A DNA stretch of 64,000 nucleotides from Octopus vulgaris (taxonomy: Eukaryota): contig OX597816.1 of assembly GCA_951406725.2 (NCBI GenBank), positions 96,596,001 to 96,660,000 on the forward strand, in the 5' to 3' direction. Under the pieces are notes generated by a model, which was given only the letters and a program-made list of their open reading frames with translations, searched no databases and was not told the origin of the DNA. The position numbers were made by a program, and so were the translations under genes. This document shows positions 36,567 to 64,000 of the stretch, one piece after another (within the stretch, counting starts at the first letter, position 1; every line of letters begins with the position of its first letter).

Positions 36567-36716
36567 TATTTTGGGATGGTCATTTTTTTCTTCTTTTGCC
36601 AAGTAAACACACGCACCATACACTCGTTTTTCACCTCAGATATATTATTCTTATTTTACAGTCCTTTGTCTGAAATATTTTGTCACACATCCCTGTGACC
36701 TCATGAGCGACTTTCC
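36563..36716 (-). mobile_element. putative Penelope-type terminal fragment abutting (TA)n, with degenerate hammerhead
   Basis: Minus strand gtcg-CTCATGA-g-gtcaca-gggatg-tgtgac-AAAA-tatt-TC-agac, then runs into (TA)n. Confidence 0.45.
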
Positions 36717-37432
36717 AAATGATGATCTTCTCGAAATATAACAATATCTGTTTGAACATAAGATTTCACATCAGGAATCTTGCAAAACAAACACATAAGC
36801 ATAAGAATGTAAACACATTTCTATTTAAGTATCTATGCATACACAGATGTGTGTGTGTGTGTGTGAATGTATGAGTGTGTGCGTGCACACGTATATATAT
36901 ATATATGAGAAAGGATGAGAGGAAGAAAGAAAGAAATCAAGTTTCACTTTCAAACACTATCTTTAAGATAGCGTGCTAGCGCTAGTATTATTTAAGTAGT
37001 GTTTTCGGGAACACTTTTTAATTTATTTAGTTATTAGGAATGCTAAAATTATAATTTTTCTTCAAATAAACGATCTATAATGTACACTTTGATTAGAGGC
37101 ATTCCAGTGAAAATATTATTCAGATGCCCCAAGCCATTATTTAATATCAAACTTCTACATGCGTTTTGATGATGTACGTATAAGTACATACAAGTATGTG
37201 TGTATGCGTGTGTGACTATGCGTATCAGCCTGTGTTTTCGCTGTAACATCAACGATAATATAGCTGCCAACACTGTAAATGGAAACTGATTTTGGTTCAC
37301 AAACTTCATTTATATACAAAACATTGGTTCCAATTTATTGCCTTGTTCTGATGTTGTTAATAACATTAATACTTAGTTTATTTTTAGAGGTAAGGCAGGA
37401 TTAAGATAAATTATTATGAGGTTTAATCAGCT

Positions 37433-55529: not shown

Positions 55530-56690
55530 CAACTTTTCTTTCATTGCTATTGTAGACAGCCTTTTTATATTTCTGATTTCTTTAAGTAGGCTGTTGAACT
55601 CTTCAGGGCCTCTGTATATGAAACTGTTTCATTAAAGTGTTCTTGTACTCAACTGGAAACGTGATAAAAATGGAAGCCGACAGCATCTGCCAGTTTGCTG
55701 GCATTAAACTTTTCACATATGTCTAAATCGAGGACATGGCTCTCCAAAATTTTCCATATATAAATAACAATGGATCTTTCTGTGTAGTCGAAGAGAAAAG
55801 AGATGTAGAGCTTTTAGACTTTTGTACAGTAATTAAGGCCTTTCACGAAAGATATTTTATAAGTGGACGTTCTCTGTAATCCCAGAATTTCTTGTATAGT
55901 ACCGGGTGTATTAAGGAACCAAAACTATGAACATTAACCTATTTCTTTAGTACCCACAAGGGGCTAAACACAGAGAGGACAAACAAGGACAGACAAACGG
56001 ATTTAGTCGATTATATCGACCCCAGTACATAACTGGTACTTATTTAATCAACCCCGAAAGTATGAAAGGCAAAGTCGACCTCGGCGACTAACGTTTCTGC
56101 CAGCTCGCCGCCTTTTAACTATGAACATTAACCTAATCTACTAAACAGTTTCCATAATGTCGACATAATCATAAGTTCTCTTGTGACGAAGGTAAGAAGG
56201 ATCCATTCATTAAGATGTCAGTATTCAGAGGTCAGTTCGGTAATGTGTCTAACAAAGATGCATCATTTGGCGTAATTATTCCTAAGATCTGTATTGGATC
56301 AGAACTTTGAATCGCTCTATTCTGTGGTGTCAAAAATTTTCTATTTTACCTATCATCTCTGAAATTTTGATGCAATAAATTTCAAATTATTTTCATTTGC
56401 CCATCAATAGATCTTGTGTAGTTCATTATGAAGTGTGTCGGCTTCCCCTGCAGTATTGATTCTCACTGATACTTTTGCGTCATCGGTATATCTCATTCGA
56501 CTGGATGAGAGTAGTGTGGTTTAATACCTGTCAGCGTGATAATGAATAACAGTGGCCTAAGACTATATACATGACTTACAAGAAAGTTGACCGCAAACAG
56601 TGACAAAGAAATTTCTATGCAATAAGTTAAAGAGTCATAAATCGAGTCTTCTAGTTGCACCAAGATTTCTAAATCAGATGATTTCATGAT
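55530..56690 (-). mobile_element. CR1-group LINE RT/3' relic, interrupted by a SINE
   Basis: LRPLLFII; RYTDDAKVS (YADD-like); WANENNLKF; LKALHLFSL; IYIWKILE; NSFIYRGPEEFNSL. Confidence 0.75.
55942..56116 (-). mobile_element. SINE (internally deleted) with perfect 19-bp TSD
   Basis: aactatgaacattaaccta at 55923-55941 and 56117-56135. Confidence 0.93.
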
Positions 56691-61914: not shown

Positions 61915-62440
61915 GACTATGCATGCAGAGCGACGAAACCGCTCTGCACGAACTCATTTGGTGTCTAGGCATTGCTGACCTGTGGGTTTTCGTCGCACAG
62001 CTACTGTCGCATGTGGGACGGATCCATCCGTCGGCCAAGTCCATAGTGAGGATTGCCTCACCGATTTCCTTAAATCGGGCAAGTAAGGTTGTTTTCTTTT
62101 TCCTGGTGGTGGTGGTAGCGAAAGAGATTGTCTGGTGAATAAGGCTGAAAGGCAATAAGTCACAGACCTTCCTCTCTGACAGAGCCCTCATCGATTTTTT
62201 CAAGTTTTACATGAAAAGGAAAGCGATGTTAGAGAAGGAGGTGCTGTCCTCAAGTGAATTTACTGAAGAGTAGGTGAAAGTTGCGAAAATGGCAAAAGTA
62301 CAGACCTATGAATCGGAGAACAGGAATTGGAGAGGGCACCTGCCTTGGTGTTCAGGGAGATCTTTGATTGTCGGGTTCCTCGATTATCCCTAGAGGTCCT
62401 TCTGCGTCAGGAAGACTACATCACTATCATCCTCCCCACT
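61915..62440 (+). mobile_element. Tx1/L1 LINE ORF2 C-terminal fragment, homologous to 23780-24190
   Basis: CMQSDETALHELIWCLGIADLWVFVAQLLSHVGRI..AKEIVW*IRLKG..FYMKRK. Confidence 0.85.
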
Positions 62441-62483
62441 TTTATTTTTATTTGTTTTTACAATTCTAAACAATATATGCTTC

Positions 62484-62536
<53 letters not shown>

Positions 62537-62594
62537 ATTCTTATTGCATACAATGCATACTTTCTATATATACAGACATATATTTATGTATGTG

Positions 62595-62651
<57 letters not shown>

Positions 62652-62653
<2 letters not shown>

Positions 62654-62876
62654 AGATGTACCTGCATAGCAAGTGATTTGATCTGAGATCGTGTGCTGAA
62701 ACGAAAACAATTGCAGCGTGGAAGGTGTTTGTAAGCCATTTAAGAAACACACAAAAGCCGTTCGATTCACTTCAACATTTAAGTTTAATTTGTCAAAATA
62801 TTTTCGTCGCTAAAATCCGCGACCTGTTCACTGACAAAAATCCGTGCTGCATCTGAGAAAGTAACAGTTAGTTCGT
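62652..62876 (-). mobile_element. short element between (TA)n tracts carrying a hammerhead (PLE terminal repeat-like)
   Basis: (TA)n on both sides and a hammerhead fold. Confidence 0.6.
62789..62838 (-). ncRNA. minimal type I hammerhead ribozyme, G3:C8 core variant
   Basis: Minus strand tttgtca-GTGAACA-g-gtcgc-ggatttta-gcgac-GAAA-atat-TT-tgacaaa: 7-bp stem I, 5-bp stem II, palindromic AATATT stem III. Confidence 0.68.
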
Positions 62877-62972
62877 TATATATATGTACGTATCTATGTG
62901 TGTGTGTATGTATGTATGCACGCATGTATGTATGCATGCATGTATGTATGTACGTACGTACGCCTGTGTGTA

Positions 62973-64000
62973 CGAGGGGCGTTCAATAAGTAATGCCCCT
63001 GACCCACTTCCCATAGCAGTAGAGCAACGAAACTTGGCACAGTTATTAGTCTTTTTCTACATAGGAACCACTCAGAGTTACGCATTTCTCCCATTGTTTG
63101 ATGCAGCTCTGGAGACCGTTTTTGTAGAAGACCCCAGCTTGGTCCTCCAACCTGAACGTGACTTCAGAAATCAAGGCTGCATCATCTGGGAAACGCTTTC
63201 CTTTCAAAAACAACTTCATGACTGGGAAGAGGGGAAAATCAGAGGGTGCAAGGTCAGGAAAGTAGGAGGATGGGGGATGAGTTCATAGCCATACGGCTGT
63301 GCTTCTGATCTGGCGACAAGCGAGTTGTGGACCGGAGCGTTGTCCTGCAGGAGGAGGATGCCTTTGCTGATCTTGCCCCGCCTCTTGATTTTGATAACTT
63401 CTCTTAATTTCCTCAAAAGTGAAGCATAATAGGCTCCTGTAATTGTGGTACCCTTTGCCAGGAAATCTGTCATCACTACTCCGTCCTGGTCCCAGAAGAC
63501 TGTGAGCATCACCTTGCCAGCGGAGGGCTGCACCCTTGCCTTCTTTGGAGGGTGAGTCACGGTGCTTCCACTGCATTGACTGGGCTTTGGTCTCTGGATC
63601 ATCGTGATGGACCCAGGTTTCATCCTGTGTAATCAGTCTTTTGAAAAATTTTGACTCATCTTCTTGGCACATCTCCAAATTCATCCTCGAGCACTCGACG
63701 CGTTCTTGCTTCTGGAAAGGCGTGAGCAACCTGGGAATCCATCTGGCAGACACCTTTTGCATATGCAAATGATCATGAATGATAGTTTCCACAGACCCGG
63801 TACTAATCTTGACCTCATGGGCTATTTGGCGAATAATTATGCGTCGATCTTCCAAAATAGCAGCCTCAACTTGACGGACAGATGCCTCATCAATGGCAGA
63901 AGCGGGGCGACCAGATCTGGGAGCTGTTTCCACAGAGTTCCGACCATGTTTGAATTCCTGATACCAGCGTTTTACAAGGTCATATGATGGGGCATCATCA
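62973..64000 (-). mobile_element. relatively young mariner (DD34D) element, running off the window end
   Basis: TA+cgaggggcgttcaataagtaatgccc TIR; transposase motifs. Confidence 0.95.
63046..64000 (-). pseudogene. mariner transposase with frameshifts
   Basis: RSGRP; KVSARWIPRLL; ITQDETW; SAGKVMLTVFWD; LLQDNAPVH; PDLAPSDF; QWEKCVTLSGSYVEKD*. Confidence 0.93.

Follow-up and report, generated by a model that had tools for sequence, protein, structure and literature searches.

Near one end of the 64,000-nucleotide stretch of Octopus vulgaris DNA that we analysed (hereafter the window), the minus strand carries what looks like a hammerhead ribozyme in which the two partners of the core pair 3:8 have changed places. 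The locus raises the question of whether this is a hammerhead at all, which element it belongs to, and whether G3:C8 in place of C3:G8 reflects selection for an active fold or accident. Upon re-reading, every part of the motif reported by the first-pass annotation was found on the minus strand at 62838-62789, with stems I and II making up the predicted fold. We classify it as a type I minimal hammerhead motif with a G3:C8 core (62789-62838), based on the letters, the fold, a descriptor, and a covariance model. The 50 bases lie on the sense strand of a retroelement, the same strand as the reverse transcriptase/endonuclease (RT/EN) ORF in three other copies (L035, L171, and L325).

In the predicted fold, the 5' strand of stem I (62832-62838) forms 7 bp with its 3' strand (62789-62795), a pairing also marked by compensatory differences between families. 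The core box N3-A9 (62825-62831; letters and copy counts) reads G3-U4-G5-A6-A7-C8-A9, with G3 at 62831 and C8 at 62826, and is followed by an extra nucleotide, 9a, which is a G (62824) and precedes stem II. Stem II with its loop (62806-62823) comprises 5 bp, with 62823-62819 pairing to 62810-62806 and G10.1-C11.1 present. The GAAA at 62805-62802 and the 6-nt palindrome AAUAUU at 62802-62797, which would form stem III, together span 62797-62805, and hammerhead numbering places the predicted cleavage site between 62796 and 62795, after U17 (62796). U4, G5, A6, A9, GAAA, U16.1, H17, and G10.1-C11.1 of the type I core are all in place, while the literal CUGANGA box (C3, G8) is absent, with G3 and C8 instead. 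Thus, we file the motif as a variant and not as a plain minimal hammerhead of Penelope-like elements (PLEs). The Watson–Crick pair possible at 3:8 is G3:C8. The extra nucleotide and the palindromic stem III are present as had been described; however, they are standard features of PLE minimal hammerheads and common to the C3:G8 relatives, in whose alignments the extra nucleotide also appears. Among 68 anchor-picked copies, subfamilies differ from one another in loop II and at positions away from the core.

A descriptor that allows any Watson–Crick 3:8 pair matched solely 62789-62838 in the 64-kb window; on 60 dinucleotide shuffles, it gave a mean of 0.03 matches and none with G3:C8. A covariance model built from 24 C3:G8 relatives only matched 62786-62841 in register (20.5 bits, rough E 0.0035). 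The window also holds a decayed hammerhead of a related C3:G8 family at 36662-36717 on the minus strand (43 bits with the C3:G8-relative model) and a weak second candidate at 55565-55616 (E 0.3). Rfam returned no hammerhead family match on 62000-63500 at E up to 10, and none on four canonical-core loci either. Because Rfam also misses canonical-core relatives, its miss here is not caused by the swap.

Stems I and II form the predicted fold with a z score of -2.34, and 4 of 200 shuffles were as stable; the pair probabilities of stem II were 0.99-1.0 in all contexts up to 225 nt. The probability of stem III pairing in the monomer was 0.0 and its self-duplex reached -0.2 kcal/mol, so that this stem is predicted to pair solely between two copies. 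In the predicted lowest-energy dimer, stem III stays unpaired, and for the ground state the prediction gives a G3-U17 pair a probability of 0.56-0.67.

The motif belongs to the terminal repeat (pLTR) of a Penelope-like retrotransposon. The suggested link to PLEs was borne out, as an RT/GIY-YIG ORF and pLTRs were found around the motif. The first-pass annotation had placed it in a separate (TA)n-embedded element of about 225 bp from an unrecognised family. The motif does mark a PLE lineage, but the separate element did not stand up: the window copy continues into the ORF, and its homology to the full copy reaches 62969 and then resumes past a mariner insertion. The (TA)n tract adjoins the 3' side only, and the simple repeat on the other side is the element's own 3' UTR. 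Within the window, the PLE copy is represented by its 3' end, that is, the pLTR and the end of the 3' UTR (62652-62969, minus strand; 91% identity over 337 bp to L325). This part includes the first 29 codons of the PLE frame, which are repeated in the pLTR (62652-62739, minus strand, with the first in-frame ATG at 62739); the insertion has its end here, with a "tail" from 62652 to about 62707. It abuts a (TA)n target tract recognised by reading the sequence (62595-62651). The mariner transposon inside the PLE 3' UTR (62971-64000, minus strand; Mos1 HTH_48, E 1e-10) is frameshifted, extends to about window-equivalent 64270, and is separate from the ribozyme element; beyond the window, the PLE copy resumes with 3' UTR, a broken RT/EN frame (L171 3395-5285), and an inverted arm. 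A similar mariner end lies in the 3' UTR of another copy (L012), and an MITE-like insert of about 300 bp with inverted ends (L171:6206-6501) splits the inverted arm within the second hammerhead region. In a genome search, the 225 bp matched many places at 98 to 99% identity.

A full pLTR-ORF-pLTR unit is found in L325, where motifs at 1242 and 5503, 4261 bp apart, flank the ORF. The predicted cut site lies 56 nt upstream of the first ATG, which opens the L325 frame (window-equivalent 62739), and the second motif of the unit lies about 1.1 kb past the stop codon. Upstream of the motif, copies carry a simple-repeat-rich 3' UTR preceded by an RT/GIY-YIG-like ORF. The frame in L326 contains RT motifs with YVDD and C-terminal GIY-YIG-like motifs, and between RT and EN, at residue 486, a C-x3-C-x2-C linker whose cysteines are invariant in 55 homologs. 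The RT/EN protein itself gave no match in Pfam and PDB sequence searches; it has 214 homologs, one of which (P0087) carries PF01541, and GIY-YIG and RVT_1 occur in 10 to 26% of the members of its Atlas neighbours (0.95-0.96). EN-bearing (EN+) PLEs are described as having a pLTR-ORF-pLTR plan, a tail, an inverted arm, and (TA)n targets, with a CX2-5CxxC linker in Neptune/Nematis (PMC8557442). Of these traits, pLTRs, a tail, and an inverted 5'-truncated arm are present here, and the linker points to an element of the Neptune/Nematis type. The host is an autonomous PLE lineage of the ordinary kind and not a new kind of system.

Next, we compared the core across copies. In the genome, exact 18-mers with G3/C8 number 6616, those with a base other than G at position 3 number 236, and those with G3 but a base other than C at position 8 number 400. 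Among anchor-picked copies that cover the motif and were chosen regardless of the core, 66 of 68 carry G3 and 67 of 68 carry C8, and no variant at 62825-62831 reached at least 3% in contigs of four further runs (organisms coded C, D, E, and B). Family-wide conservation of G3:C8 was thereby upheld. In this young family, however, flanking sites are as conserved as the core, so that copy counts alone show descent and not selection. Among the exceptions, 232 copies carry G3/G8 (for example, L065, L071, and L075-L100) as compared to 168 with G3/A8 or G3/U8, an unexplained excess for which mutation bias or selection for uncut RNA come into question. We rejected G3/G8 as an evolutionary intermediate, since the eight such copies in the tree described below are scattered among young subfamilies and are not basal. 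Likewise, eight exact C3/G8 18-mers considered as revertants of the young family proved to be members of older families. The mirror change, C3/C8, is much scarcer than G3/G8: about 6 of the first 100 of the 236 non-G3 18-mers carry it, and about 10 of these 100 carry U3/G8.

Related families with the same layout gave 1895 canonical-core matches versus 20 in the control. With positions 3 and 8 left free, a hand count of the first 100 of 1108 matches yielded 85 with C3:G8 and none with G3:C8; the remaining 15 were U3/G8 (6), C3/A8 (3), A3/G8 (2), G3/G8 (2), A3/C8 (1), and G3/U8 (1). Several of the C3:G8 relatives sit downstream of homologous ORF remnants (35 to 67% identical by segment). The flank of the young family is 0.61-0.66 identical to that of family C, scoring 77.5 versus a shuffle maximum of 61.5, while against family A it scored 39.0, not above shuffles (mean 37.6). 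Homologous families carry C3:G8 and the swapped lineage carries G3:C8, which agrees with the earlier reading of the double change as compensatory. Older G3:C8 families, of which 21 copies were classed (flank identity 0.80 to the young family) and which were picked up by patterns that demand the core, differ at N7 (C), in loop II, and in stem III, yet keep G3:C8. Decayed members with N7 = C and a 4- to 6-nt stem III region were seen at L274, L290, L291, L296, L299-L301, L307-L310, and L315. More distantly, among metagenome relatives with 31 to 41% protein identity, 3 of 10 loci have the motif after the ORF; all three (L136/L137 and L140), two of which are near-duplicates, are C3:G8. The C3:G8 state of these distant relatives indicates that G3:C8 is derived.

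We then built a tree of 104 rows from the sequence downstream of GAAA only, leaving out positions 3 and 8. It separates 65 G3-type from 39 C3-type rows (96/96, branch 0.27), with a bootstrap that is not fully settled; the split used is G+H versus A/B/C, where the automatic H label includes young copies. The two states thus fall apart even in a tree blind to both core positions, and we conclude that there was a single compensatory swap, retained through a long radiation. The stems are also kept across copies, and compensatory stem changes occur between families, in line with the conservation proposed for them: in stems I-III, 9 of 13 pairs change on both sides (32 rows; 2 of 500 shuffles), in an alignment in which the stem I columns of older G3:C8 rows are misaligned (63% paired). 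Core patterns served to select its rows, which in itself produces the 16:16 covariation at 3:8, so that this count is not independent evidence. In phage contigs, none of 120 G3:C8-core matches folds as a hammerhead according to the descriptor versus 57 of 125 canonical ones (scope, 3 and 1 of 64 parts and N7 = U only), so G3:C8 looks rare there.

Position 17 differs between the families. Of the young-family copies, 125 of 130 have U here, as do most of the older G3:C8 copies; C stands in 25 of 26 copies of family C and in 11 of 14 of family A. In family B, C3:G8 goes together with U17 in all three copies, so the swap is not required for U17. We also considered U17 as a pre-existing permissive step; this was not borne out, as family B groups with A and not with the G3 families in the tree. 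In PMC3884650, a G at position 17 is proposed to trap C3, and lower activity with C17 than with G17 is stated for a variant with G3-C8, with the data unshown in that source. U17 may make the swap tolerable, as far as one event allows.

Taken together, we consider it probable that the motif is a pLTR hammerhead that underwent one lineage-wide change from C3:G8 to G3:C8, with likely weak self-cleavage that depends on a second copy or on protein and processes a tandem transcript. In the published work, nucleotides 3 and 8 are paired in the active conformation (PMC3884650), the 2'-OH of nucleotide 8 takes part in catalysis (PMC6155905 and PMC8495972), and PLE minimal hammerheads cleave poorly in vitro (PMC4209133), while in one PLE hammerhead C3G/G8C partly rescues cleavage, with protein required (PMC11167929). 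With the swap, an isosteric Watson–Crick pair at 3:8 would persist and hold the 2'-OH of nucleotide 8 in place. To form the palindromic stem III, the two pLTR copies in a tandem transcript would pair with each other, or the RT/EN protein would help, and a cut after U17 would serve to trim the unit RNA or to set it free. U17 may avoid a G3-C17 trap, a mirror of the known C3-G17 trap, although only one event bears on this. Most genomic copies would go back to RNA that had not been cut, with copying that began at two points within the ORF and reached back to about 62854. Against this explanation stand the rarity of copy ends at the cut site (1 of 100), the predicted G3-U17 wobble, the barely stable stem III, and the unexplained 232 G3/G8 copies.

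Most copies are short, and their ends bear on competing accounts. We sampled the first 100 of 10742 downstream-anchor matches; inverted partners and seven look-alike junctions make some of these copies non-independent. Their 3' ends fall at 62652-3 in 49 copies and at 62703-10 in 41. The modal 5' end, a putative RNA 5' end, lies at 62851-62858 on the minus strand (47 copies), where loose contig ends of sequencing runs also occur, at 62854 and 62851. It is sharp, about 23 nt upstream of G3, and may be the transcription start of a pLTR promoter. Of the 100, 67 retain the whole 5' half, and only 3 reach 62876. A unit of about 150 to 200 nt could thus be an independent family, retrozyme-like or SINE-like, mobilised in trans and perhaps via circular RNA, which would suit the common 5' end, the 10742 anchor matches versus 363 first-look candidates for the RT segment genome-wide, and seven copies that share one junction at 62828. 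We regard this as very improbable: the unit coincides with the pLTR found in full elements and takes in the start of the ORF, the window copy itself runs on into the ORF, and two alternative 3' ends with head-to-head inverted pairs are the insertion signature of PLEs (PMC8557442 and PMC11167929). Furthermore, two internal reverse-transcription start points near the ORF start are described in another PLE (PMC11167929), and by analogy the short copies would fit as products of an autonomous element. The seven dispersed copies (L161, L164, L203, L204, L208, L209, and L212) have their common inverted junction beside a similar 3' flank, which suggests a fold-back unit amplified within another repeat. 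A non-LTR retrozyme, which consists of non-coding head-to-tail repeats, was rejected because the window copy is part of an ORF-bearing element.

The other two alternatives accept the fold and question its chemistry. The fold could be kept for a non-catalytic job, as a protein-binding site or as a translation or promoter element, with 3:8 mattering for shape. The motif sits downstream of the modal 5' end and upstream of the first ATG, and copy ends are not enriched at the cut site, the single copy starting at 62795 being the only cleavage footprint among the 100 DNA copies. Work on another PLE (PMC11167929) found that hammerhead mutants left insertion unimpaired, making the ribozyme dispensable in one reconstituted in vitro system, and saw no RNA ends at the position of the cut. 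We nevertheless hold this reading to be unlikely, given that U4, G5, A6, A9, G12, A13, A14, A15.1, U16.1, and H17 in the anchor-picked sample match the external core and that 3:8 is a pair of the active conformation (PMC3884650). Alternatively, the ribozyme could be a dead or crippled relic whose two transversions arose by chance and spread along with a successful master element that no longer depends on it; the single event in the tree, the 232 G3/G8 copies, and the same dispensability in vitro (PMC11167929) agree with this. Yet the sole two core changes hit both partners of one pair, while the flanks are only 0.61-0.66 identical to family C, and G3:C8 outlasted later changes at N7, in loop II, and in stem III, which makes a relic quite unlikely. 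A bolder extension of the preferred pLTR-hammerhead explanation is that this is the first natural, fully functional G3:C8 hammerhead, in which U17 and a long stem I compensate, a two-transversion valley was crossed, and a hidden inverted-core class runs across PLEs; we put it forward tentatively, as a doubtful possibility.

A fixed compensatory double transversion at the active-state pair provides comparative evidence for selection on the active fold in PLEs. The G3:C8/U17, C3:G8/C17, and C3:G8/U17 families in one genome form a natural test set for core epistasis, and entire high-copy families escape motif searches that insist on CUGANGA. The extra nucleotide, the palindromic stem III, G10.1-C11.1, natural U3:A8, and engineered G3:C8 are already published. 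A natural, family-wide G3:C8 appears to be new: we found none in the literature reached, whose coverage is incomplete, including that of PLE hammerhead variants, so priority is uncertain. In supplement file 2 of PMC4209133, none of nine GUGA matches is a G3:C8 core, and the main text of PMC13282606 leaves ribozymes unmentioned.

Compared with known systems, the closest likeness is to the minimal type I hammerheads that Cervera and De la Pena described from PLEs in 2014 (PMC4209133). Both occur in the two pLTRs of an RT/GIY-YIG element with many solo copies and have the extra nucleotide between 9 and 10.1, G10.1-C11.1, and a palindromic stem III. In contrast, the pair is G3:C8 here and C3:G8 there, the extra nucleotide is G here and H in their consensus (supplement file 2), and a 7-bp stem I with a 5-bp stem II stands against a short stem I and a long stem II. 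The element as a whole resembles the Neptune/Nematis-type EN+ PLEs of PMC8557442 in its order of RT, CX2-5CxxC linker, and GIY-YIG-like domain, and it likewise has pLTRs, a tail, an inverted arm truncated at the 5' end, and targets of (TA)n; unlike those elements as described, its protein is unrecognised by Pfam. A natural compensatory change at 3:8 has precedents in U3:A8 hammerheads (PMC3088659), including a Schistosoma PLE variant (PMC4209133); however, U3:A8 takes two transitions and keeps pyrimidine-3/purine-8, while G3:C8 takes two transversions and puts a pyrimidine at 8. The same core pair was engineered as C3G/G8C, with partial rescue of cleavage, in Anolis Poseidon (PMC11167929) and elsewhere (PMC8495972 and PMC3884650). 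Unlike in those constructs, the swap in octopus is the wild-type state in a lineage that numbers thousands of copies, where it is accompanied by U17.
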